64,000 nt of DNA, taken from contig JBAQNM010000006.1 in the NCBI GenBank assembly GCA_049303795.1, forward strand, positions 717 through 64,716, in the 5' to 3' direction. Positions within the stretch are counted from its first letter, which is position 1, and each line of letters begins with the position of its first letter. The position numbers and the translations under genes are program-made. The stretch is from Candidatus Moraniibacteriota bacterium. Lineage in GTDB: Bacteria > Patescibacteriota > Minisyncoccia > Moranbacterales > UBA2206. Below, piece by piece: positions 8,191-64,000 of the stretch. The notes below the pieces were generated by a model. The model was not told where the DNA came from. It was given only the letters and a program-made list of their open reading frames with translations, and searched no databases.

Positions 8191-8631
8191 ATGGATATTT
8201 TAAGGCCCTACTACATCTTTCTGATTCCAATGCTCGTTGGCGGTATCGTGCAAACAATCAAATTCATCGTGTATTCATTAAAACATGGTTGGAACATCCA
8301 ATACGCCATGACACACGGCCATATGCCAAGTGCTCATACTGGCTTTATCGTTTCACTTGTCACTTCAATTGGATATTATGATGGCGTGAACACTGGCGCT
8401 TTTGCCGTTGCAGTCGCACTCGCAATTATCGTAATCGACGACGCCGCCCGCCTTCGTATGTATATGGGTGATCAAGGCCGTTATCTCAATATGCTTATCC
8501 GTCAACTTAATATCAATGAGGAACAATTCCCAAGACTACAAGAAAGAGTTGGACACCGCATCAGTGAAGTGATTGTTGGGGGAATTTTAGGGTTTATTTT
8601 AACTTTGCTTATCGCAAGAATTCTTGGATAA
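8191..8631 (+). CDS. Divergent PAP2-family membrane protein (DUF212/YuiD-like)
   Basis: 146 aa. The GMPSAHTGFIVSL...DDAARLR pattern is typical of acid-phosphatase-related DUF212. Confidence 0.55.
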   Translation: MDILRPYYIFLIPMLVGGIVQTIKFIVYSLKHGWNIQYAMTHGHMPSAHTGFIVSLVTSIGYYDGVNTGAFAVAVALAIIVIDDAARLRMYMGDQGRYLNMLIRQLNINEEQFPRLQERVGHRISEVIVGGILGFILTLLIARILG

Positions 8632-17342: not shown

Positions 17343-17903
17343 TTACTTCAAAACAAATATCAGTTCAACTCCGGATACTTTCAAGACTCTGACATTTTTC
17401 CGTTCGTGCGCAGGCATTTCTACCGGCTGTCCATCTGCACATTGGGACACTTCTTTCTCAACGAATTGTCCTCCGCAGGTCTCACAGATATCCCCGGATT
17501 TTTTCCATTGATTGATCTCTGAGTGGGGGCAGGGTGCTACGCTGATTTCTGCCTTAATAGTGGGGCTTACTTTTTTAATAAAAACCCCCTTGCTGTTGGG
17601 CACCATCGGATTGCCACTGCTCTCATCAAGAAGTTGTGCGGAACCGGAAATTTCGATGCTATGGAAATCCAGGTAGTGCTTTATTGACCATGCGAGATCC
17701 TTATCTTGCCTGACAATACTTTTCTCCGCTTTTTCTTCAAGAGCGTTCAGGCTATTTTCAAACTCCTCAATTTTTGCTTCGAATGCCTCGAATTCATCAT
17801 TCGCAGTAATTTCACCTTCCACCTCAACGCTTTTTTTGAGAACCTTCAATTGATCTTTCATCCCGTTGATTTTTTTCCGCAGAACATCCGCTTCTTCTTT
17901 CAT
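17343..17903 (-). CDS. Hypothetical coiled-coil protein with a C-terminal Cys-rich zinc-ribbon-like segment (CPHS...CETCGG...C)
   Basis: N-terminal heptad-rich acidic/lysine region. C-terminal Cys cluster. The 3' half of the gene is visibly GC-richer than the 5' half. Confidence 0.4.
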   Translation of the reverse strand: MKEEADVLRKKINGMKDQLKVLKKSVEVEGEITANDEFEAFEAKIEEFENSLNALEEKAEKSIVRQDKDLAWSIKHYLDFHSIEISGSAQLLDESSGNPMVPNSKGVFIKKVSPTIKAEISVAPCPHSEINQWKKSGDICETCGGQFVEKEVSQCADGQPVEMPAHERKNVRVLKVSGVELIFVLK

Positions 17904-24519: not shown

Positions 24520-25050
24520 CTATTTAAACAAGCTCTCGATTTCTGTCAGCGGTTCGAAAATATTTCGCTGGCCTCTGTTGAGCGAAAGATGGACGATTAT
24601 ACATACAAGAAATCTGTCTTTCGCGGAGTCATTTTTGGTGACAAGAAACTCTGAAACATACGTGGTCGTACCCTTGTCAGCCTCTTTTGAAACAACTGAA
24701 TAATCAGAGAAGACGAAATAGATCTCGCCTTTACCGCTTACCCATATTTTTTTTGGAGCCTCCTTGATGCCAGTACCCCTGAATTCATAGAACCAATCAT
24801 CTTTAAGAATCAAATTTCTTCCTTTCGGCGACTGCATGGGAACGTAGACCAAGAATCCAGCAAATTCCCATTCTGCATCCAGGAAAAATTGACCTTTGGG
24901 AGCTCGCATGACGACGTAGTAATCGCAGGTCGTATCAGGTCCTACAAATTTTGCGGCCAGGATATACTGATGAGTTTCCTCACAAAAAGCCGGGGTCACT
25001 ACCAACAAAACGATTGCCAATACTGCCATAACTAAAGTCGTTTTTTTCAT
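24520..25050 (-). CDS. Hypothetical secreted protein (signal peptide MKKTTLVMAVLAIVLLVVTPAFC)
   Basis: N-terminal signal-peptide-like segment. Bidirectional terminator hairpin at about 24456-24495. Confidence 0.45.
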   Translation of the reverse strand: MKKTTLVMAVLAIVLLVVTPAFCEETHQYILAAKFVGPDTTCDYYVVMRAPKGQFFLDAEWEFAGFLVYVPMQSPKGRNLILKDDWFYEFRGTGIKEAPKKIWVSGKGEIYFVFSDYSVVSKEADKGTTTYVSEFLVTKNDSAKDRFLVCIIVHLSLNRGQRNIFEPLTEIESLFK

Positions 25051-30232: not shown

Positions 30233-30727
30233 TTATAGCCAGCCTACGAGCTTCCAATTTTCCCCCGATGTTTGTGTTGGAGCCTTTTTTTGCCCCACTT
30301 GCATGGAAGCCTTTATCGCAGTCACGAATTCATCGTGACTAGCATTAACCCCAATCCAAGCGGTTACGCCTATCCGCTGATACGTACCAGAGTAGCATTG
30401 ATGATCTATGATAATAATTGGCACATTTTGGTACGCCTTTAAGGTGCGTATCATTTCAACGGTATCTTCCGTATTGATCCGCATATTATCACTTGAGCCT
30501 CTATATCCGGACATAATTATAAGATCAAAGGTATTTCTGTGGCTCAAGCTTGCTAAGCATTGCATCGCAATGTCAACGCCTGACATAGCCTGAACATAGT
30601 CATACATCTTCAAACTGCTCTCGTTATCCAACAAAAAGACATCATTCAAGACCCTGAACATATTGGACTCTACCACGCTTAAAGGCTCGCCAATAAGTAT
30701 GCGCGGTCTCCTTTCAAATTCTTTCAT
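30233..30727 (-). CDS. Hypothetical protein (possibly receiver-domain-like fold), in a GC-rich patch
   Basis: 164 aa. The alternating hydrophobic beta-strand pattern (RILIGEP...DLIIMSG...VPIIII) is reminiscent of CheY-like folds. Local GC is much higher than the flanks. Confidence 0.3.
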   Translation of the reverse strand: MKEFERRPRILIGEPLSVVESNMFRVLNDVFLLDNESSLKMYDYVQAMSGVDIAMQCLASLSHRNTFDLIIMSGYRGSSDNMRINTEDTVEMIRTLKAYQNVPIIIIDHQCYSGTYQRIGVTAWIGVNASHDEFVTAIKASMQVGQKKAPTQTSGENWKLVGWL

Positions 30728-31704: not shown

Positions 31705-32835
31705 ATGAGCCTATTGCCACAAGAACAACTGCATAAATTCATTGATAGCTCAAAAGAGATTATTATTTTTATTCCTGAAAATCCCAGCTTCGATGCTATC
31801 GGAAGTGCGTGGGCGCTGTCTATTTTTTTGAGCAAAAAAAATATTAAAACAACCATTGTTTCTCCGGATCAAGATGAAAATAAAGTTGCCTTTCTTCCTA
31901 GGCCAGAAAATGTCATTTCCACTATTTCTGGAGCAAGAGAGTTTGTTCTATCTTTTAATACTACTAGAAATAAAATTACCGGCTTGCGCCAAGAAACAGT
32001 TGGCGATTTTTTTAATGTCTATCTTACTCCTGAAAAGGGTTCGATTGATCCACGTGATTTTTCATTTATTCTCGCCAAATTTAAATATGACCTAATTATT
32101 GTTCTTGATAGTCCGGACTTGGAAAATTTAGGAAAGGTATATATTAATAATTCTGATCTTTTTTTTGAAGTACCAATTGTCAACATTGATCACCGTAGTA
32201 ATAATGAAAATTTTGGTCAAATAAATTTAGTTGATTCAAAGGCATCATCCTGCGCTGAAATTCTAAAAACTGCTTTGGAAAATATAGACAGCAATATTCT
32301 TGATGAGGGCATTGCCACTTGCCTTTTGACCGGAATTATAGGAGCGACTAATAATTTTCAAAGAAAAAACACCACTCCAAAAGCTCTTCTAAATGCAGCT
32401 GAATTGATGGATAAAGGAGCTGATCAACAAGGCATTATTCGTTTTATGTATAAAACACAACCATTAAATATTCTCAAATTACTTGGTCGCGTCATGAGCA
32501 AATTAAATTGGGAGGAAAAACATAAACTAGCCTGGACAACACTGTCGATTGAAGATTTTGTTCAAAGTCGCTCCACTTCAGAGAATTTACCCATAATTTT
32601 AGAAAAACTTCAAGAAAACTATACTGACGGACAAATTTTTATGATCATCTATAATGATAAGCCGGAAAGTTCTGTAGCAATTATCAAAACGACCAGTCTT
32701 GAGATTTCACAAAAAATAGCTTTGAATTTTGGCGCCTTACACAAGCAAGATTTATTAGAAATCAAATGCGCTCAAGGTGATTTAAATCTTGCCACAAGAC
32801 TTATTCTTGAAAAATTAGACAACATCCTACTCTAA
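31705..32835 (+). CDS. DHH/DHHA1-family phosphoesterase (NrnA-like) with partly degenerate catalytic motifs
   Basis: NPSFDAIGSAWAL corresponds to the NrnA motif NPDGDAIGS. NIDHRSNNENFGQINLVD corresponds to DHHxxxxFGD with DHH replaced by DHR. C-terminal DHHA1-like region. Confidence 0.5.
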   Translation: MSLLPQEQLHKFIDSSKEIIIFIPENPSFDAIGSAWALSIFLSKKNIKTTIVSPDQDENKVAFLPRPENVISTISGAREFVLSFNTTRNKITGLRQETVGDFFNVYLTPEKGSIDPRDFSFILAKFKYDLIIVLDSPDLENLGKVYINNSDLFFEVPIVNIDHRSNNENFGQINLVDSKASSCAEILKTALENIDSNILDEGIATCLLTGIIGATNNFQRKNTTPKALLNAAELMDKGADQQGIIRFMYKTQPLNILKLLGRVMSKLNWEEKHKLAWTTLSIEDFVQSRSTSENLPIILEKLQENYTDGQIFMIIYNDKPESSVAIIKTTSLEISQKIALNFGALHKQDLLEIKCAQGDLNLATRLILEKLDNILL

Positions 32836-32865
32836 TTCTCTTACATATTTAATATTCTTTTTTAA

Positions 32866-32892
32866 AAACCCTTAAAAATAGGGTTTTTATTT
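32866..32892 (+). terminator. Terminator hairpin AAAAACCCTtaaaaatAGGGTTTTTATTTTTT downstream of the NrnA-like gene
   Basis: Stem ACCCT/AGGGT followed by a T-run. Confidence 0.55.
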
Positions 32893-32917
32893 TTTAGTTT
32901 TCGTTTTTCATGCTAGA

Positions 32918-35900
32918 ATGAATTTAAGTAAACTATTTATTGAAAACAAAATTATGATAAAAATTACAAAAAAAGCTACTGGGGATAATGCTTCGAAAAA
33001 AGCTGTTTCTGAAAAACTCGTTTCGACCATGCGCCACAAGTCCGAGGAAGAAGAAGCGTCACGTTTTGCTGCCACACTTAATCTCCCCTATATTGATACC
33101 AATATCGTCCCGGTTTCTTTGGATAATTTAAAACTCATCGAGGAAGAAGATGCAAGAAGATTAAGCGTCGCTATTATTCAAAAAATAGGACGCATTATTA
33201 CCATAGTCTCAACGGATCCATCCAAAACAGAAACTAAAGAATTTATAAACAAATTTTGTAAAGAATTTGGGCTTGAAGCTAAGATTTTCGTTGTTTCACA
33301 TTATAATTTTGAAAAAATTCTAGAAAAATATAAAAAAATTGTTTTTACAGAAATTCTTGATCAACTCAGCCTAAATATCAACGACCGTTATGCCTCCAAT
33401 TTTGAAAAATCCCTTAGAGATTTAGTTATGTTAAAAGAAAGAATCAAAGAACTTCCTGTTACTCAAGTTCTTGGTATTATTATGGCCGGAGCAACTGAAC
33501 TCGGCGCATCTGATGTCCATTTTGAACCAGAAGAAAATGACTTTCGCTTACGTTATCGTGTGGATGGAGTTTTGCAAGATGTAGCTTTTTTTCCTATTAA
33601 TGTCTACAGGAGCATCATATCAAGAATAAAAATGATGGCTGGTATGAAATTAAACTTAAATGATATTGCTCAAGATGGAACTTTTGCTATAAATATTGGC
33701 GATAAAAAAATTGATACTCGCGTATCTTCTATTCCCGGGAATTATGGAGAATCACTTGTGATTAGAATGCTTGACCCTGCTGCTGCGCATGTTGATATTG
33801 AAGTTTTGGGTCTCCAAGGATTGGCATATGAAACAATTCAAAAACAAATCCAAGCCCCTAACGGAATGATTCTCACAACTGGACCAACCGGTAGTGGAAA
33901 AACGACCACTCTTTATTCCATCATCAACAAACTCAATACGCCAGACAAAAAAATTATCACCATTGAAGATCCAATCGAATATCAATTAAAGGGAATATCT
34001 CAAACTCAAATTGAAAAAGATCGCGGCTACACTTTTGCTAATGGACTTCGTGCTATTGTTCGTCAAGATCCTAACATAATTCTTGTTGGTGAAATTCGTG
34101 ATGATGAAACAGCTGATATTGCAATCAATTCAGCACTTACCGGCCATCTTGTATTATCCACTTTTCACACTAACAGCGCCATTGCTTCCGTTCCTCGTTT
34201 AATTGAAATGGGAGTAAAGCCTTCTTTTATTGCCCCTGCCGTTAACGCTATTATTGCTCAACGTCTAGTGAGAAAATTATGTTCCTGCAAAGAAGAATAC
34301 TTTCCTGCCAAAGAAACAATTGACTCACTTAAAAAAATTCTTTCCATTATTTCGCCTCGCGCTAAAGTGGAAATTCCCAAAGATATCACCAAGCTTTATC
34401 GACCAAAGGGCTGTCTTAAATGTAATAATACTGGATACAAAGGTCGTATTGGTATTTTTGAAGTGTTCACAATCAGTCCCGAAACAGAAAAACTGATTAT
34501 GGACTTGGCCGGAGAAACTGAAATCACCATGTCAGTTTTAGAAGAAGGTATGGTCACAATGCTTCAAGATGGCATTCTAAAAGCAATTAGTGGAATAACT
34601 TCTATTGATGAAGTGAAAAAAGAAACTGGACAAGGAGAATTTTTGGAAAATATATATGAAAAATTAATGTCACAATTACTTGGAAGCACACTAACTATCA
34701 AAAAAGACTTCTATGAAAAAGCGCTGGAAAATATTGATGACTTTTCTAAACTGCAAACATTATTTTCTGAAACCAAGATTATTGATATTATAAAAATTAT
34801 TTTTTCTGCTGCTCAAATTTTGGGTGTTGGCGATGTCCATATTGAACCAGAAAAAAATGATGTCAAAATTCGCTTCCGAGTTGATGGAATCTTACAAACA
34901 ATCGCTGTCATCCCCCTCACTGAATACACTACTTTCATAGGACAAATTAAACTCTTAAGTGGAGTGAAGACTGAGGTGCGCCAAGGCGTAATTGATGGTC
35001 GTTTCAGTGTTGTTTTCGATGATGAAATAGAAAGTTTAAAAGAAAAAACAGTTGATATTCGCGTCTCTATTATTCTTGGTGGATATGGAGAAACGATTGT
35101 AATGCGTTTGCTTAGTAAATCAACCGTTGAATTAAATCTGGATAAACTAGGAATCAGAAAGCAAAATCTGGATAGAATAAAACATGAAATTTCTAAGCCA
35201 AATGGGGTTGTGCTTAATACTGGACCAACTGGTAGTGGAAAAACGACAACGCTTTATGCTATTTTAAATTATGTCAACAACCCAAAGATAAAAATCATTA
35301 CTGTTGAAGATCCGATTGAATATCAAATGGAAGGCATCTTGCAAACACCAATCAATGAAAAAGAAGGCTACACCTTTTCTACAGCTCTACGATCACTACT
35401 CAGACAAAATCCTGACATTATGATGATCGGTGAAATTCGTGATGATGAAACCGCCCAAGTTGCAGTGCAAGCTGCGCTGACCGGCCATCTCGTGCTTTCC
35501 ACTATTCACACCAATGACGCCGCCGGAACAGTTACTCGTATAATTAATATGGGAGTTAACCCTCAAGATGTAACATCCGCTGTCAATGCCTTTATTGCTC
35601 AGCGTTTAGTTCGCAAACTCTGCACCTGCAAAACTAAAATCACCCCAACTGAAGAAGAAAAACAAAAAATTGAAGGTGTCCTAAAAACAATCAGTTCAAA
35701 CGCTAAAGTAGAAATTCCTAAAACTGATGAAATATACAAACCAAATGGCTGTGAAAAATGTAACCATCTTGGTTATAAAGGTCGCACAACTATCAGCGAG
35801 GTTTTTGTCTTGTCGCGAGAAATTCAAGCAGAAATTATGCGCGGAGCAATTACATCAGAATTAAAAGACAAAGCCATTGAAGAAGGTATGATTTCAATGA

Positions 35901-35974
35901 CTCAAGATGGAGTTTTGAAAGTTTTGGAAGGTGAGACGACTTTAGAAGAGGTGGAGAGGGTTACGGATCTTTAG
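32918..35974 (+). CDS. Tandem (duplicated) GspE/PilB-family type II secretion / type IV pilus assembly ATPase in one 1018-aa polypeptide
   Basis: N-terminal GspE-N-like domain. Two complete ATPase cores, each with Walker A GPTGSGKTTTLY (about residues 325 and 770), Asp box IITIEDPIEYQ / IITVEDPIEYQ, Walker B ILVGEIRD / MMIGEIRD, His box LVLSTFHTN / LVLSTIHTN and a tetracysteine CxC...CxxC motif. Confidence 0.85.
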   Translation: MNLSKLFIENKIMIKITKKATGDNASKKAVSEKLVSTMRHKSEEEEASRFAATLNLPYIDTNIVPVSLDNLKLIEEEDARRLSVAIIQKIGRIITIVSTDPSKTETKEFINKFCKEFGLEAKIFVVSHYNFEKILEKYKKIVFTEILDQLSLNINDRYASNFEKSLRDLVMLKERIKELPVTQVLGIIMAGATELGASDVHFEPEENDFRLRYRVDGVLQDVAFFPINVYRSIISRIKMMAGMKLNLNDIAQDGTFAINIGDKKIDTRVSSIPGNYGESLVIRMLDPAAAHVDIEVLGLQGLAYETIQKQIQAPNGMILTTGPTGSGKTTTLYSIINKLNTPDKKIITIEDPIEYQLKGISQTQIEKDRGYTFANGLRAIVRQDPNIILVGEIRDDETADIAINSALTGHLVLSTFHTNSAIASVPRLIEMGVKPSFIAPAVNAIIAQRLVRKLCSCKEEYFPAKETIDSLKKILSIISPRAKVEIPKDITKLYRPKGCLKCNNTGYKGRIGIFEVFTISPETEKLIMDLAGETEITMSVLEEGMVTMLQDGILKAISGITSIDEVKKETGQGEFLENIYEKLMSQLLGSTLTIKKDFYEKALENIDDFSKLQTLFSETKIIDIIKIIFSAAQILGVGDVHIEPEKNDVKIRFRVDGILQTIAVIPLTEYTTFIGQIKLLSGVKTEVRQGVIDGRFSVVFDDEIESLKEKTVDIRVSIILGGYGETIVMRLLSKSTVELNLDKLGIRKQNLDRIKHEISKPNGVVLNTGPTGSGKTTTLYAILNYVNNPKIKIITVEDPIEYQMEGILQTPINEKEGYTFSTALRSLLRQNPDIMMIGEIRDDETAQVAVQAALTGHLVLSTIHTNDAAGTVTRIINMGVNPQDVTSAVNAFIAQRLVRKLCTCKTKITPTEEEKQKIEGVLKTISSNAKVEIPKTDEIYKPNGCEKCNHLGYKGRTTISEVFVLSREIQAEIMRGAITSELKDKAIEEGMISMTQDGVLKVLEGETTLEEVERVTDL

Positions 35975-36024
35975 TCTGAACCACTGATTCGCACTGATTA
36001 ACACATGAACACACTTGAATTTTT

Positions 36025-36411
36025 ATGAACGACTATATTAACAATAAATATTATAAACCAGACGTCACTGCTAAAATTATCGGTTGCGCACATAAAGTCC
36101 ATCGTTTTTTAGGTAACGGATTTCAAGAAGTAATTTACCAAAGAGCTCTGGAAATTGAATTTGGAAAAGAAGACTTGAAATTCGAAAGAGAAAAAGAAAT
36201 GGATACATACTATGAAGATAATCTTATTAGAAATAGAAGGGTAGACTTTTTAGTTGATCAAGATATTATGGTTGAATTGAAAGCTATTACAAAATTAGAA
36301 GATGTTAATATTGCTCAACTTATAAATTATATCGAGGCTTATAAAGTAAGAATTGGACTTCTTATAAATTTTGGAGCAAAAAGTTTAGAAGTGAAAAGAT
36401 ATATAAAGTAA
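36025..36411 (+). CDS. GxxExxY-family protein (PD-(D/E)xK nuclease-like)
   Basis: IIGCAHKVHRFLGNGFQEVIYQRALEIEF...VDFLVDQDIMVELKAITKLEDVNIAQLINYIEAYKVRIGLLINFG matches the GxxExxY family signature. Confidence 0.7.
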   Translation: MNDYINNKYYKPDVTAKIIGCAHKVHRFLGNGFQEVIYQRALEIEFGKEDLKFEREKEMDTYYEDNLIRNRRVDFLVDQDIMVELKAITKLEDVNIAQLINYIEAYKVRIGLLINFGAKSLEVKRYIK

Positions 36412-36420
36412 TTAAAATTT

Positions 36421-36466
36421 CAGTGTAATCAGGATAATCATGTGCTAATCATATGGTTCAGACAAT
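36421..36466. repeat. Left copy of imperfect direct repeats (CAGTG..GATAATCAtGTG..GGTTCAGACA) flanking a high-GC islet
   Basis: Matches 37846..37871 (CAGTGATAATCACGTGGTTCAGACA). The left copy carries extra short internal duplications (taatca). Confidence 0.5.
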
Positions 36467-36500
36467 TAAAAAAGGCTTTCCCATTCGGGTTAGCCCTTTT
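36467..36500. terminator. Bidirectional terminator hairpin AAAAAGGCTTTCCCATTCGGGTTAGCCCTTTTTT. A near-identical copy lies at 59605..59640.
   Basis: Stem GGGCT/AGCCC with an internal CCC/GGG and T-runs on both sides. Confidence 0.6.
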
Positions 36501-36527
36501 TTGTCAGGTCCTCAATCCTGATCTTAT

Positions 36528-36902
36528 TTATTTTTTAAGGATTCTATATTGCCGACCGCCTATGTTAATATCGTAATCAGCGTCATCGGGAATTTGGATT
36601 TCCATTCCTGTAGTGGTCCATTTTATTTCCTTCAGCACCCAGCTACTCAGGAAACCCTCGTAACAATTCCTGCCCGATAAATTCCGTAAACCTTTTATGA
36701 ATATTATCTGTTTTTCATAATCCATAGAGGCCTCGTCACATACGACAACCAAGACAGGGTCATCAAGAAACATTACTGAACGAGAGATGGTAACAATTAT
36801 TCCCACATCTATTTCATCTATCGTTATCCGCGAGCCATTATCACAGCCCGCAAAACCCAGACCAAGAACAACAATCATCAGCATCAGCGTTATTTTTTTC
36901 AT
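36528..36902 (-). CDS. Putative lipoprotein (lipobox LGLGFAGC), first listed gene of the high-GC islet operon
   Basis: Start placed at the internal MKKITLMLMIVVLGLGFAGCDNG. The ORF track extends further 5'. Local GC is well above that of the surroundings. Confidence 0.4.
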   Translation of the reverse strand: MKKITLMLMIVVLGLGFAGCDNGSRITIDEIDVGIIVTISRSVMFLDDPVLVVVCDEASMDYEKQIIFIKGLRNLSGRNCYEGFLSSWVLKEIKWTTTGMEIQIPDDADYDINIGGRQYRILKK

Positions 36903-37234
36903 TTCCATCCCCTTTCTTTGTTTTCCCTGGCCTTCATCACGGCCAGCGAGATTAGGGCTCCCACAAGAAAAATCGTAGGGCCAATATAGACGACGTCTTT
37001 TGCCGATTGAATTATATCGTTTTTTTGCAACGCAATCCATATCGGCGCGTTGCCGATTCCTAATCCAATGGCAACAATAGAAAGTATCAGTACTGCTTTT
37101 TCTGTGGGCTCACTCCGTAATGTAAACGGAAAAAACACTCCCACAAAAAAGAACAATGGCCAGGAAAAATATGAGAAAAAACTCCCAATTGCCCCAACCA
37201 GCATCATTCCCAGAAAATAACCAGCGATACGCAT
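36899..37234 (-). CDS. Hypothetical membrane protein (111 aa) in the high-GC islet
   Basis: Three hydrophobic helices. ATGA overlap with the downstream lipoprotein gene. Confidence 0.4.
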   Translation of the reverse strand: MRIAGYFLGMMLVGAIGSFFSYFSWPLFFFVGVFFPFTLRSEPTEKAVLILSIVAIGLGIGNAPIWIALQKNDIIQSAKDVVYIGPTIFLVGALISLAVMKARENKERGWK

Positions 37235-37252
37235 TGCTTCCTCCTCCGCTCT

Positions 37253-37438
37253 TCAAAAATTTATTTTACATGCGACGAACCCCGTCACAATCAAAATCAA
37301 TTCGTGGGAAAGCTTTCCTGCTGTTGAAACATTCTCGATGGCCGTCTGAAATCCTGATGCATAATCGATCAGATAAACGATCATGCAACCAAACACCACA
37401 ATTCCCATCTTAACTGCTATCCTCGGATAGTCTATCAT
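37253..37438 (-). CDS. Hypothetical small membrane protein (61 aa) in the high-GC islet
   Basis: Two hydrophobic helices. Operon context. Confidence 0.3.
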   Translation of the reverse strand: MIDYPRIAVKMGIVVFGCMIVYLIDYASGFQTAIENVSTAGKLSHELILIVTGFVACKINF

Positions 37439-37475
37439 AGCATCCTCCCCCTTTTATCAGAAAAATTGTTTTTCA

Positions 37476-37787
37476 TTACTCAGCCGGAACAGTCGTTCCC
37501 GGAATCAACTCCACGGAAACAACATCACCATCCTCATCAAGAATGATGCAGCCTTTGAACTCGAATTTTGAGATTGACAATCGATGCTCGTGGCTGATTC
37601 CTTTGGAGAATTTTTCCATGTTGTTGTGGTGTCCCATTTCCATTATGCTCCACAGAGCAATAACGAAACCAATTATTAATGTTATTAAGATTATTTTTTT
37701 ACTGGTCTCAGATATAGAGGGCAAGACTAAAAACAAACAACAACCATAAACCATTAAACTTCCAATCACGGTGGCTATCGCATACAT
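37476..37787 (-). CDS. Hypothetical membrane protein (103 aa) with a His-rich loop (MEMGHHNNMEKF...HEH) in the high-GC islet
   Basis: Two TM helices plus a His-rich segment. Operon context. Confidence 0.35.
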   Translation of the reverse strand: MYAIATVIGSLMVYGCCLFLVLPSISETSKKIILITLIIGFVIALWSIMEMGHHNNMEKFSKGISHEHRLSISKFEFKGCIILDEDGDVVSVELIPGTTVPAE

Positions 37788-37845
37788 ATCTATCTCCTTC
37801 TTTTGTCAAAAAACTTGTTAATATTTCACGTGAAATCAATGACTT

Positions 37846-37871
37846 CAGTGATAATCACGTGGTTCAGACAC
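37846..37871. repeat. Right copy of the direct repeats flanking the high-GC islet. It lies between two CACGTG palindromes.
   Basis: CAGTGATAATCACGTGGTTCAGACA. Compare 36421..36466. Confidence 0.5.
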
Positions 37872-38107
37872 TAATCTGCAGGCAAAAATCTCAAACTAGG
37901 AGCCTGAGAAAAGGAACAAAATCGAGGTATAACGCAGCCAGTTCACTAAGAGCGAAAAAACCACCTTACCCATGTCTTGAAAAAAGTTCCCAATATTGAT
38001 GACAAAAGATAGAAGTCACCAATTGCCTGCAATTTACTGCTAGCCACTGCTTTTAGGAAAAAATCACAAAAAGCAATGACTAGCCAATTTAGCATAGTTT
38101 TTGCTTT

Positions 38108-38136
38108 TTGTCAAATGCGGTTATTTAGTGTATACT
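38108..38136 (+). promoter_or_regulatory. Putative sigma-70 promoter of ruvB (TTGTCA - 17 nt - TATACT)
   Basis: Near-consensus hexamers with a 17-nt spacer, about 40 nt upstream of the ruvB ATG. Confidence 0.5.
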
Positions 38137-38175
38137 TTACTTATAAGAACTAGCTAATATTCCCTAAATTACCCT

Positions 38176-39180
38176 ATGATCACTAATTCACATGAACAAT
38201 CTGAGGATATAACCCTGGATAACACGCTACGACCACAAAGCTTCAAGGAATATGTCGGACAAGAGAAAGTTAAAAAAAATCTTGATATTCTAATTCAATC
38301 AGCCAAAAAACGTCAAGAACAAATTGAACACGTTTTGCTTTATGGACCAGCGGGACTCGGAAAAACTACCCTTGCCAACATCATTGCTAAAGAATTAGGC
38401 GTAAATATCAAAACCACTTCTGGCCCAGCGATCGAGCGCGTGGGAGATTTTGGCTCGATTCTAACTAACTTGCAAGATGGTGACATTCTTTTTATTGACG
38501 AAATTCACAGACTTAATAAATCTATTGAAGAAATTCTTTATCCGGCTATGGAAGATTATAAGTTAGATATTATTATTGGCAAAGGACCATCAGCTCGAAC
38601 AATTCAACTGGACTTACCAAAATTCACTCTCATTGGCGCAACAACCAAACTAGGCTCACTTTCAAATCCTTTGCGCAACCGCTTTGGTGCCATTCATCGC
38701 CTGGAGTTCTATGAACAAGATGAGATCAAACGTATCCTAGAACGCTCGGGACGCATTTTGGAAATTCCCATGGAAGATTCCGGTATTTCTGAAATCGCCA
38801 AATGTTCACGTGCCACACCTCGTGTTGCCAATCGACTTTTGAAACGCGTGCGTGATTTTTCTCAAATCAAAAACTATCCTTCGATTGATAGTGCTCATGC
38901 CCGTGAAGCATTAGAAATGATTGATGTTGATCATATTGGCCTCGAACCATCTGACAGACACATCTTACGCACCATTATTGAAAAATTTTCTGGTGGTCCT
39001 GTTGGACTTTCCACAATTGCCGCAGCAACATCTGAAGAAGTTAAAACAATTGAAGATGTTTACGAGCCATACCTTTTACAAATCGGTTTTCTCGCAAGAA
39101 CTCCTCGCGGAAGAACCGCTACTGAATCAGCCTATAAACATCTTGGCATAGAATTTCCCAATAATAGCCTCCACTTTTAA
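38176..39180 (+). CDS. ruvB: Holliday junction DNA helicase RuvB
   Basis: Walker [22 protein letters not shown] sensor region. 334 aa with a typical RuvB N-terminus ([16 protein letters not shown]). Confidence 0.95.
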
Positions 39181-62544: not shown

Positions 62545-62690
62545 AATTTTCTAATAGTTTATTAACCTTTCTAGTCACAATTATAATTATACTCTATTTG
62601 TGAAATATGGTAAAAAAAGCTTCTTGAAAAAAGAAAAAAGGCAGACCCGTAGATACAAGGTCTGCCTTAAATTATTTAAACTACTCCTTT

Positions 62691-64000
62691 TTATTTTACT
62701 GGAACAACAGCGTTCGTAATAAGAGGAAGGATTCCGCGAATTGTCTGAATTTCAATAACTTCCCATGCAATCAGCTGAAAACCAAATGCCTTAGAATCAA
62801 AACTTTGTTTGGCTTCATAGCTTCCTCGACGATACCATCCCCGACCTCGGCTTTCAAACACTCGATCAGGCAACCCAGCACAGATTGCCATACGTAAATC
62901 ATCTTCTTTCCCCAACTCATCATTAGGAGCAAAACCGAATCCACGCATACTAAGCATCAACTGACGAGCAACCATCCAAATATCTTTAACGGCTCGATAT
63001 GACACATAATTTTGTCGACACCAAGCCCCCAAAGACTCCCCACCTCTCTCCTCAGCAAGCCGGATAACTCGAACAGCTGTCCAGGCATCACATACTGAAG
63101 ATGTTTTAAATGCTTGATGTGCCATGTCTGCTCTGCGACCCTCTTCTCCTTTAGGTCGGTAAAGCAAACGCTTGCCTTGCTGATTAGCAATAGCAATTGC
63201 CATCTCGCGAAGACATCCGCGTTCTGCAGCCTTGAAAAGCATAGCTGCTTCACGAGGATCACATCCAAGTTCCACTGCCTTAAGGCCTAATTCGGTGATT
63301 TTTGCTTCGGGCGATTCGTCGACAAATCCAAGCATCTGAAGCTGAATCTTGGCTTCCTGCCAATTAGTCTTACCTGGATAATCAACGAGGCGAATGGGTT
63401 TGTTTTCCCTCGAAAGCTTCAGTGCTTTTAGGGTTAACACAACCTCACGAAGAGGCGTACGAAAAATTTCAGGTACTGTACGCTCAGACCTTTTTAAAAA
63501 GTTTTCTTCAGAGAATAATCCGACATACGTGCCAGATCTTACCCGTCCGCATCTGCCACGTCGCTGAATGATGCGATCTTGAGCAGTTTCTCGCACTTTA
63601 AGTGATGAAATATCAGAAACAGGATCATAACCCTTCTCGCGGGCAAGACCAGAATCAATCACCCAGCCAATATTTGGAAGTGTTGCTCCTGTTTCCACAA
63701 TATCAGTGGCCACAGTAATCGTAATTCCGCCTCGCTCTACAAATGGAGCATGGCGTTCATCGCCATTGAGTTCTCCGTGAAGCGGTAAAACTGTCACGCC
63801 TGAATTTTCCGGAAAAATTCGCTGAAGAGCTTCAACACTCATTGCGATTTCTCCTTTGCCAGGCATAAAAACCAAACCATTTCCCCTTTTCTCACCAACC
63901 AACCTTTGTGCTTCTCTACTAACAACTTTAAAAAAATCTTCATCACCGTCTTCCGAGATATATCGTTCTTCGATTGGAAAGTTAGTGACAAGATCGGATC
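62691..64000 (-). CDS. DEAH-box ATP-dependent helicase (HrpA/HrpB-like), C-terminal part. N-terminus lies beyond the window edge. Strongly GC-rich.
   Basis: LVFMPGKGEI, LPLHGEL, TVATDIVETGATLP, IQRRGRCGRVRSGT and the following HA2-like region. The reading frame stays open to position 64000 (no in-frame stop found upstream). GC content is far above the rest of the window. Confidence 0.7.
   Translation of the reverse strand, partial: SDLVTNFPIEERYISEDGDEDFFKVVSREAQRLVGEKRGNGLVFMPGKGEIAMSVEALQRIFPENSGVTVLPLHGELNGDERHAPFVERGGITITVATDIVETGATLPNIGWVIDSGLAREKGYDPVSDISSLKVRETAQDRIIQRRGRCGRVRSGTYVGLFSEENFLKRSERTVPEIFRTPLREVVLTLKALKLSRENKPIRLVDYPGKTNWQEAKIQLQMLGFVDESPEAKITELGLKAVELGCDPREAAMLFKAAERGCLREMAIAIANQQGKRLLYRPKGEEGRRADMAHQAFKTSSVCDAWTAVRVIRLAEERGGESLGAWCRQNYVSYRAVKDIWMVARQLMLSMRGFGFAPNDELGKEDDLRMAICAGLPDRVFESRGRGWYRRGSYEAKQSFDSKAFGFQLIAWEVIEIQTIRGILPLITNAVVPVK

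Follow-up and report, generated by a model that had tools for sequence, protein, structure and literature searches.

Replacement-type flexible islets are strain-variable cassettes, found at surface-related loci in marine and other bacteria, that are exchanged via conserved flanks. Here we compare with them, and with other described systems, an islet of four small genes at 36421-37871 in a 64,000-nucleotide stretch of DNA from a Candidatus Moraniibacteriota bacterium (contig JBAQNM010000006.1). The whole stretch is referred to as the window, and all positions without another label are those of the window. Its GC content is 0.34, and the public metagenome-assembled contigs that match it are from Candidatus Moraniibacteriota (Parcubacteria, part of the Candidate Phyla Radiation, CPR). 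The four genes lie between pilB and ruvB, and are probably this strain's allele of a hypervariable slot at that site. We favor the explanation that they came by homologous replacement via the conserved flanks, not by site-specific integration, and that the repeat on their right (repeat C) is a copy of a dispersed repeat. As an object the islet is ordinary, a strain-specific cassette of small size, and it gives a clean example of gene turnover in a reduced CPR genome. The repeats matter more than the islet itself, as they lead to a repeat-nuclease module and to an unclassified conserved RNA.

The variable slot and its four genes

The ancestral order at the locus would be pilB (forward), a gene for a small structured RNA (reverse) and ruvB (forward). 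A scan for RuvB in species-representative genomes gave 80 loci. PilB orthologs adjoin ruvB in many Parcubacteria, and the adjacency was seen in 12 Parcubacteria relatives inspected closely; wherever the two genes are adjacent, a short spacer follows pilB. In the window, the gap between pilB and the RNA gene appears to contain two unrelated things, a GxxExxY module and the variable gene slot. The gap is about 15-130 nt long and geneless in seven relatives (L012, L014, L016, L047, L052, L054 and L085; L numbers designate the loci and contigs used for comparison). Where it is occupied, its length and content are as follows:

L011, gap of 953 nt: one lipoprotein-like gene (open reading frame, ORF, of 187 aa; 173 aa from the second ATG)
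L027, gap of 1154 nt: one gene of 326 aa, read as a membrane-anchored TPR-like protein
L195, gap of 625 nt: a repeat pair, then one gene of 89 aa
L091, gap of 1217 nt: a GxxExxY module, then two genes (106 and 83 aa)
Window, gap of 1889 nt: a GxxExxY module, then four genes

This comparison shows that the slot is hypervariable, with five different alleles, and that it is empty in other lineages. Several of the alleles seem to be of an envelope type, with predicted membrane-anchored or lipoprotein products. The first slot gene begins shortly downstream of the RNA gene, on the same strand, in the window, L091, L195, L011 and L027. We place the borders of the slot at the terminator beside repeat B and at the 3' end of the RNA gene; between them there would be either nothing or one, two or four unrelated small minus-strand genes.

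The most informative comparison is with L091, which is 99% identical to the window in PilB and 98% in RuvB at the protein level. Its DNA is collinear with 32026-36536 of the window at 95% identity, a segment that includes repeat A, the GxxExxY gene, repeat B and the terminator hairpins. Collinearity returns at 37779, and between the breakpoints L091 has 575 bp with two genes vs 1242 bp with four genes in the window. Identity is 91-98% up to about 36450 and 98.7% across the RNA gene, and the two sequences are unalignable from 36537 to about 37450. Only one gene of the islet has a relative in L091: the 103-aa protein is 46% identical to the 106-aa protein of L091 over the C-terminal 46 aa. The last block common to both is the terminator block, which has a terminator-like site at 36503-36522. 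L195 and L135 have a comparable hairpin after the repeat.

The composition of the operon differs from that of its surroundings. Third-position GC content (GC3) is 0.41-0.45 in all four genes vs 0.29±0.06 in 58 other ORFs of the window. The L091 cassette is host-like at 0.31, and the homologous first gene has a GC3 of 0.45 in the window vs 0.31 in L091. We conclude that the four genes are compositionally foreign, a conclusion these values support. The first-pass annotation, made from the sequence alone, had described the GC content of the islet as much higher than that of the surrounding genome. This holds for GC3 and is overstated for bulk composition, which at 36467-37845 is raised to 0.404 vs a mean of 0.338 (sd 0.027) for windows of equal length; 1.6% of such windows reach the islet value, and elsewhere in the window two stretches equal or exceed it. 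The highest-GC stretch (0.44) is at the right end, 62601-63979. The adjacent GxxExxY gene has a GC3 of 0.19, and thus a history separate from that of the islet.

The four genes form a tight minus-strand operon at 36528-37787, followed by a likely terminator. In order of position they are:

36467-36527, no strand assigned: a pair of hairpins flanked on each side by T/A runs, which probably terminates transcription in both directions, of the GxxExxY gene (plus strand) and of the operon (minus strand)
36528-36902, minus strand: predicted lipoprotein of 124 aa (signal peptide, LGFAGC lipobox), encoded by the operon's last gene
36899-37234, minus strand: polytopic membrane protein of 111 aa, with three hydrophobic stretches interpreted as 3-4 membrane spans
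37253-37438, minus strand: small membrane protein of 61 aa, identified from its ORF, a GGAGG site and one hydrophobic stretch
37476-37787, minus strand: protein of 103 aa, first gene of the operon, with a two-helix hairpin at the N-terminus, a three-strand beta unit at the C-terminus and a small cluster of His residues

Transcription would thus proceed through the genes for 103, 61, 111 and 124 aa. Gaps within the operon are 18-37 nt, the last two genes (111 and 124 aa) overlap by an ATGA stop/start, and a GGAGG-type ribosome-binding site precedes all four starts. A hydropathy scan found hydrophobic stretches in the 103-, 61- and 111-aa proteins. The 124-aa protein begins with MKKITLMLMIVVLGLGFAGC, a signal peptide plus lipobox; by inspection, without a dedicated predictor, it has the features of a lipoprotein (MKKITLMLMIVVLGLGFAG|C, with a hydrophobic segment at residues 1-22). 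The ORFs, spacing, ribosome-binding sites, hydropathy and lipobox therefore bear out the description of a tight operon of four small membrane or lipoprotein genes in the first-pass annotation, while the "His-rich" character it gave the 103-aa protein amounts to 4 His in 17 residues. Transcription of the operon may start at an extended -10-like box within repeat C (TGAAATATT), or it may depend on read-through from the promoter of the RNA gene, and it would end at the bidirectional terminator (36467-36527).

Three of the four proteins are strict ORFans. Self-hits alone were found for the 124-aa lipoprotein and the 103-aa protein among 5.8 billion proteins, and a self-hit alone for the 111-aa protein in a full HMMER search of 1.84 billion representatives. 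The 61-aa protein was checked against four family libraries only (Pfam, PHROGs, NCBIfam and PADLOC), and no significant family was found in these libraries for any of the four. The homology check that had been advised for the small proteins thus returned only self-hits for the three searched at database scale, and nothing for the fourth in the family libraries. The islet DNA has no match in phage or plasmid collections. The islet proteins occur on seven public contigs, with identical neighbors in all, and have no paralogs within the window. The four proteins most likely have a dispensable, strain-specific function in the cell envelope.

The core context, the empty states, the differences between alleles, the ORFan status and the GC3 shift together support an acquired, dispensable cassette. 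The proposal of an acquired cassette in the first-pass annotation thus stands, given the insertion in a conserved core context, the foreign composition and the different cassettes in L091 and other relatives. We suggest that the allele was replaced by homologous recombination, with the block of repeat B plus terminator as the left-hand flank and the RNA gene as the right-hand one. The donor may have been an unsampled relative with higher GC content and the same locus. Replacement through the flanks would be the most economical route.

It is unlikely that no transfer occurred, i.e., that the genes are native and vertically inherited, subject to fast birth, loss and evolution, and that their GC3 reflects local mutation or expression bias. 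This explanation draws on the diverged L091 homolog of the 103-aa gene at the same position, by which part of the operon would be native to the locus, and on the lack of a donor in any database searched. Further, a few other genes of the window have islet-like GC3 values of 0.40-0.48 (17343-17903, 24520-25050, 30233-30727 and 8191-8631). However, the flanks are 95% identical to those of L091, yet the homologous first gene differs in GC3 (0.45 vs 0.31). The remaining genes are unalignable, and the change seems too abrupt for evolution in place, with all four genes alike.

Repeats and the GxxExxY nuclease module

The gap holds three copies of one repeat, two of them around the GxxExxY gene and one to the right of the operon:

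35974-36022, plus strand: repeat A, beginning at the stop codon of pilB; the GxxExxY module's inverted repeat on the left (profile E = 7e-10)
36025-36411, plus strand: GxxExxY / PDDEXK_3 gene of 128 aa, encoding a predicted PD-(D/E)XK nuclease
36416-36463, minus strand: repeat B, right inverted repeat of the GxxExxY module (profile E = 1e-11)
37824-37869, minus strand: repeat C, a solo full-length copy in the orientation of B that abuts the 3' end of the RNA gene (profile E = 1e-9)

The first-pass annotation had noticed B and C as flanking direct repeats of about 25 nt. Both are real: 36442-36464 and 37848-37870 match at 20 of 23 positions, GGTTCAGACA occurs exactly at two places only (the left and right repeats), and the right 25-mer is unique within the window, with zero occurrences in shuffles. 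Each copy is nevertheless about 45 nt long, and the third, inverted copy (A) had been missed. The CACGTG palindromes recorded beside the right copy are indeed present, at 37828 and 37854; both are within copy C, where they form boxes 1 and 4 of the 45-nt unit.

This unit, derived from an alignment of 43 copies, reads TG-TC(T/A)GAACCAC-TGATTnnCAC(n)TGATTnnnnTGATTnCAC(n)TGA. Its four TGATT boxes are spaced by about one helical turn, its outer end reads TGTC(T/A)GAACC, and copy C aligns to the unit over its full length. A metagenome scan with a 15-base pattern gave many chance matches and an unrelated repeat of high GC content, from which true copies were separated by a profile of 45 nt, TC[TA]GAACCAC-TGATT..CAC(n)TGATT....TGATT.CAC(n)TGA; family membership is defined by this profile, and A, B and C all pass. 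B and C are 0.68 identical over the 45-nt unit, vs a family median of 0.74 for pairs. Their nearest copies are on unrelated metagenome contigs, that of B in L191 (0.89) and that of C in L092 (0.81), and A is 87% identical to copies in L011 and L118. We conclude that B and C are copies of a widespread, GxxExxY-associated family of inverted repeats, and are not att sites.

The family has several forms. Geneless doublets of 92-111 nt, in which two copies stand back to back and inverted, were found in at least 12 contigs (L101, L118, L121, L128, L155-L158, L167, L186, L205 and L208; for example, L101 1511-1606, L118 9565-9661, L155 4271-4367, L157 4558-4667, L205 1208-1315 and L208 528-636). The doublets are common in low-GC metagenome contigs, with outer ends TG...CA. 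The unit also occurs as solo intergenic copies, and in L201 an ordinary rmlA-like gene is enclosed by two copies in the same orientation. In about 1 Mb of fetched relatives, the 12-mer core is found only beside GxxExxY genes, plus one solo copy in L011. No consistent target duplication was found in the 12-nt flanks of 21 repeat pairs. Two repeat patterns had no match in IMG/VR viral contigs, so that nothing points to a phage vector. A second conserved intergenic repeat, with the common core GAACCACTGATTTTCACTGATGACCACTGATGCAAACAGAGTTGCGCGATGG, occurs many times in microbial-mat contigs of about 60% GC with no GxxExxY gene nearby (L110, L111, L125, L137, L145, L146, L151, L152, L159, L163, L179 and others), and may be a related family in another phylum.

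At the pilB site itself, A is kept at the pilB stop codon in the window, L091, L011, L195 and L135. B is at the same position in L091 (where it is near-identical), L195 and L135; as L091 and L195 carry other cassettes, its position is independent of the sequence to its right. Between A and B there is a gene in the window, L091 and L135 and a 150-nt palindromic insert in L195, and L011 has A only. This distribution indicates that the repeat pair is old at the site, and that its center is a place of insertion. The GxxExxY module, with the nuclease gene between inverted repeats A and B, would likewise be old here. The insert at the center of the pair in L195 (8163-8312) has its own inverted ends, CACCTCA...TGAGGTG, and two hairpins, and resembles a separate miniature element that sits within the doublet. 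C was not detected in L091 or L195, though both carry cargo in the slot.

The assignment of the GxxExxY protein is strong (PF13366 at 123.8 bits, cut-off 22; TIGR04256 at 129.4 bits, cut-off 35). The translation contains the GxxExxY motif as GFQEVIY, and then VDFLV...VELK, the D...ExK signature. At least 8000 homologs were scored, and the best 120 are 71-100% identical. All ten distinct close GxxExxY genes that were compared have a match to the repeat profile on both sides, within a few to about 60 nt, mostly as an inverted pair (plus on the left, minus on the right). Modules of 475-510 bp were found in at least ten unrelated contexts. Examples and contexts are:

Window 35974-36463: between pilB and the slot
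L092 3961-4471: beside a gene for a Fib_succ_major protein
L096 3953-4459: inside a glycosyltransferase cluster
L113 1073-1559: module
L168 3673-4215: module
L218 1682-2159: between RND adaptor and ABC transporter genes
L222 4702-5188: between a glycosyltransferase gene and recG
L221: near pilM

Across different genera and contexts, GxxExxY proteins are 78-95% identical to that of the window, which suggests that the modules spread rather than descend vertically. Extra or nested copies of the repeat also lie beside GxxExxY genes in L135 and L168. PF05635 (23S_rRNA_IVP / four-helix-bundle) genes adjoin the module in the unrelated contexts of L092 (4432-4815, where the called start overlaps the right repeat) and L096 (3182-3541), and are possibly small hitch-hiking genes of another kind. 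Among solved structures, none has a sequence relationship to the GxxExxY protein. A 2012 survey listed the function of the PF13366/GxxExxY family as unknown.

In the literature on GxxExxY, PF13366 and CPR MITEs (miniature inverted-repeat transposable elements), as far as it is searchable, no description of the repeat module was found, and it is apparently undescribed so far. This is the first genomic context that we could find for PF13366/GxxExxY, a very large family. We tentatively raise the possibility of an undescribed selfish system of CPR bacteria, in which a GxxExxY nuclease sits at the center of a TGATT doublet of about 100 nt and either homes into doublets or maintains and spreads them, while repeat clusters and the RNA gene form a hot spot at which ORFan envelope genes are swapped. 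If this is true, a PF13366 nuclease would home into the doublet center or spread doublets in the manner of REPIN/RAYT (repetitive extragenic palindromic doublets and their associated tyrosine transposases) with a different enzyme. The testable form of this is that the GxxExxY protein binds or cuts the TGATT-box arrays around it.

The module also raises a second route for the four genes, which we consider quite unlikely: A (plus strand) and C (minus strand) would be the outer ends of a composite element that contains the GxxExxY gene, B and the four genes, and that was moved or captured by the nuclease or by an unknown partner. The A/C inverted pair does enclose everything that is extra relative to the empty relatives, nested or extra copies beside GxxExxY genes are also known from L135 and L168, and the doublet center can take other inserts (cf. 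L195). The four genes, however, are present at this locus alone in public data (seven contigs, one context), no target duplication surrounds any module, and L091 and L195 hold slot cargo without C. It also counts against this route that we know of no transposition activity shown for PD-(D/E)XK proteins of the GxxExxY family.

Very improbable is the route closest to that of the first-pass annotation, an integrative cassette, remnant or mobilized in trans, with B and C as attL/attR-like sites or target-site duplications at the 3' end of the RNA and with fixed junctions that would lie inside GTGnTAATCAnnTGGTTCAGACA: B and C are in direct orientation, bracket the operon and terminator and are alike in their outer parts (20 of 23), C is immediately next to the 3' end of a conserved RNA gene and the cassette is absent from relatives, but over the full 45 nt the two are 68% identical, under the family median (74%) and under their best unrelated matches (89% and 81%), B stands beside other cassettes in L091 and L195 where C is absent, the L091 breakpoints (36536 / 37779) lie about 70 nt inside each repeat and not on the repeats, ordinary genes elsewhere are flanked by the same repeat, and there is no recombinase ORF or family match. 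Together, the low identity of B and C, the constancy of B in relatives, the absence of C from L091 and L195 and the position of the breakpoints exclude the reading of the repeats as att sites or target duplications.

That reading would have been refuted, as the first-pass annotation itself allowed, by repeats that occur widely, and those of the GxxExxY-linked family do. An empty site with one copy of the repeat at the junction had been proposed as a check; L012, L014 and L016 are empty and have no match to the repeat profile, while L091 and L195 keep B but hold other genes, without C. The remark that no integrase lies inside was correct, as no recombinase family was matched among the ORFs of 35975-38175 in Pfam, PHROGs, NCBIfam or PADLOC. 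Nor do the four genes behave as a transposon or insertion sequence: in addition to the 21 repeat pairs without a consistent target duplication, there is no transposase family match, no second context (the seven public contigs have the same neighbors) and no paralog in the window.

Homologous replacement through the flanks remains the explanation that we prefer, and several points weigh against it. Copy C is placed precisely where the RNA gene has its 3' end and points the same way as B, an arrangement that is classic for an integrated island. At the nucleotide level ruvB is further diverged from L091 (87-93%) than pilB is (91-98%), so the right flank does not have a simple history. The breakpoints are defined by one close relative only (L091). 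No donor of the cassette was found in the databases searched, and import is not directly demonstrable. Co-transcription of the operon and the assignment of its promoter are putative. Finally, single-sequence structure models gave no functional clue: the AF2 model of the 124-aa lipoprotein is unusable (pLDDT 32), and that of the 103-aa protein (pLDDT 69.5) has only a two-helix hairpin and a three-strand unit.

The structured RNA gene and the core neighbors

The right border of the slot is formed by the RNA gene, within the non-coding DNA that precedes ruvB. The features of this part of the locus, and the core genes on both sides, are:

32918-35974, plus strand: pilB, a gene for a fused double PilB/T2SSE ATPase, identified from its ORF and from T2SSE domains on an identical public contig; left core neighbor
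37788-38175, no strand assigned: non-coding DNA of about 390 nt that separates the four-gene operon from ruvB
37864-38044, minus strand: structured non-coding RNA gene, with a closing stem and four further helices
38086-38114, minus strand: near-consensus promoter of the RNA gene (TTGACA, 17 nt, TG-extended TAAATT)
38108-38136, plus strand: promoter-like site of ruvB (TTGTCA, 17 nt, TATACT)
38176-39180, plus strand: ruvB, identified from its ORF and its conservation in relatives; right core neighbor

The non-coding DNA beside copy C is conserved in relatives, and its fold is more stable than that of shuffled sequences on the minus strand (z = -6.07) vs the plus strand (z = -2.55). RNAalifold of seven sequences gave 48 pairs, 25 of them compensatory (25/48). 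In a model-guided alignment of 14 sequences, 94.7% of cells are paired and 37 of the 48 pairs show double changes, values that are to be read with the alignment having been fitted to the model; no shuffle reached them, and slid controls pair at 42-46%. The RNA has a further 5' hairpin (38039-38084) and an invariant CCUC(G/A) in an internal loop.

A covariance model finds the RNA in 14 loci, each time on the minus strand between pilB and ruvB, and recovers seven loci outside the seed (L015, L027, L047, L052, L054, L085 and L195). Its coordinates in relatives include L011 5634-5795, L012 5694-5856, L195 8745-8927, L015 4256-4437 and L027 5555-5706. No family of Rfam 15 matches at gathering score, with only chance-level microRNA-type matches at E up to 10, and Rfam has nothing at the position of the RNA in five relatives. 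We considered 6S RNA, SRP RNA, RNase P RNA and tmRNA, and rejected them given no match by inspection or in Rfam. A structured RNA that is conserved across Parcubacteria, with strong covariation and no Rfam family, merits its own description.

TTGACA and the TGC before the -10 box of the RNA promoter are kept in all five relatives in which this promoter was read. The promoters of the RNA (minus) and ruvB (plus) are back to back at 38086-38136, with the TTGACA/TGTCAA hexamer common to both. This divergent block, TTAGCATAGC...TTTTTGTCAAG, is conserved in relatives.

On the other side of the slot, the PilB-type ATPase of the window (1018 aa) consists of two complete T2SSE ATPase units that are fused, as in L011, L012, L091 and L195. 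The more distant L015 and L027 have a single-unit ATPase of 569-592 aa at the pilB position.

Short-read public assemblies break repeatedly at the GxxExxY gene and repeat B, and within the RNA gene. For example, L003 corresponds to 36411-38046 of the window, and L007-L010 begin at 38021. We considered the breaks in Logan contigs at about 36411 and at 38021-38046 as signs of excision, and rejected this as they coincide with the GxxExxY gene and repeat and with the conserved RNA gene. The breaks are likely caused by sequences common to co-occurring relatives, and are no evidence of excision.

Comparison with known systems

Among integrated elements, the islet recalls the integrase islands at the 3' ends of tRNA and tmRNA genes, in that its position is immediately 3' of the gene for a small structured RNA and similar sequences in direct orientation stand on both sides. 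Unlike these islands, it has no integrase, its repeats are neither duplicates of the RNA 3' end nor each other's closest relatives, and relatives fill the slot without the RNA-proximal copy.

The repeats, as distinct from the islet, have their closest parallel in REPIN/RAYT systems. As there, a gene is bracketed by inverted copies, geneless doublets of about 100 nt are far more numerous, and solo copies are intergenic; the dispersed inverted doublets and the inverted copies that flank the gene are both present here. Unlike in REPIN/RAYT, the gene encodes a PD-(D/E)XK nuclease (PF13366) and not a Y1 transposase of the IS200/IS605 type. Also unlike that system, the GxxExxY gene is multi-copy and about 80-90% identical across genera, and the repeat unit consists of TGATT boxes in an array, not of one hairpin.

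The module likewise resembles free-standing homing endonuclease genes, as a small nuclease gene is at the exact center of a palindromic site that is also found unoccupied; at the pilB site, the window, L091 and L135 have the GxxExxY gene and L195 lacks it. It differs from them in that PF13366 is not a recognized homing family, and in that the site is a dispersed repeat rather than a conserved host gene.

The four genes themselves compare best with replacement-type flexible islets. Shared features are a fixed site between core genes with unrelated alleles in close strains, membrane-anchored or lipoprotein products, atypical composition, the lack of mobility genes and a sharp drop in identity at the flanks. 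They differ from such islets in the very small size of the slot alleles (0.3-1.3 kb), in borders that consist of a repeat-plus-terminator block and a small RNA gene, and in that three of the proteins are complete ORFans.

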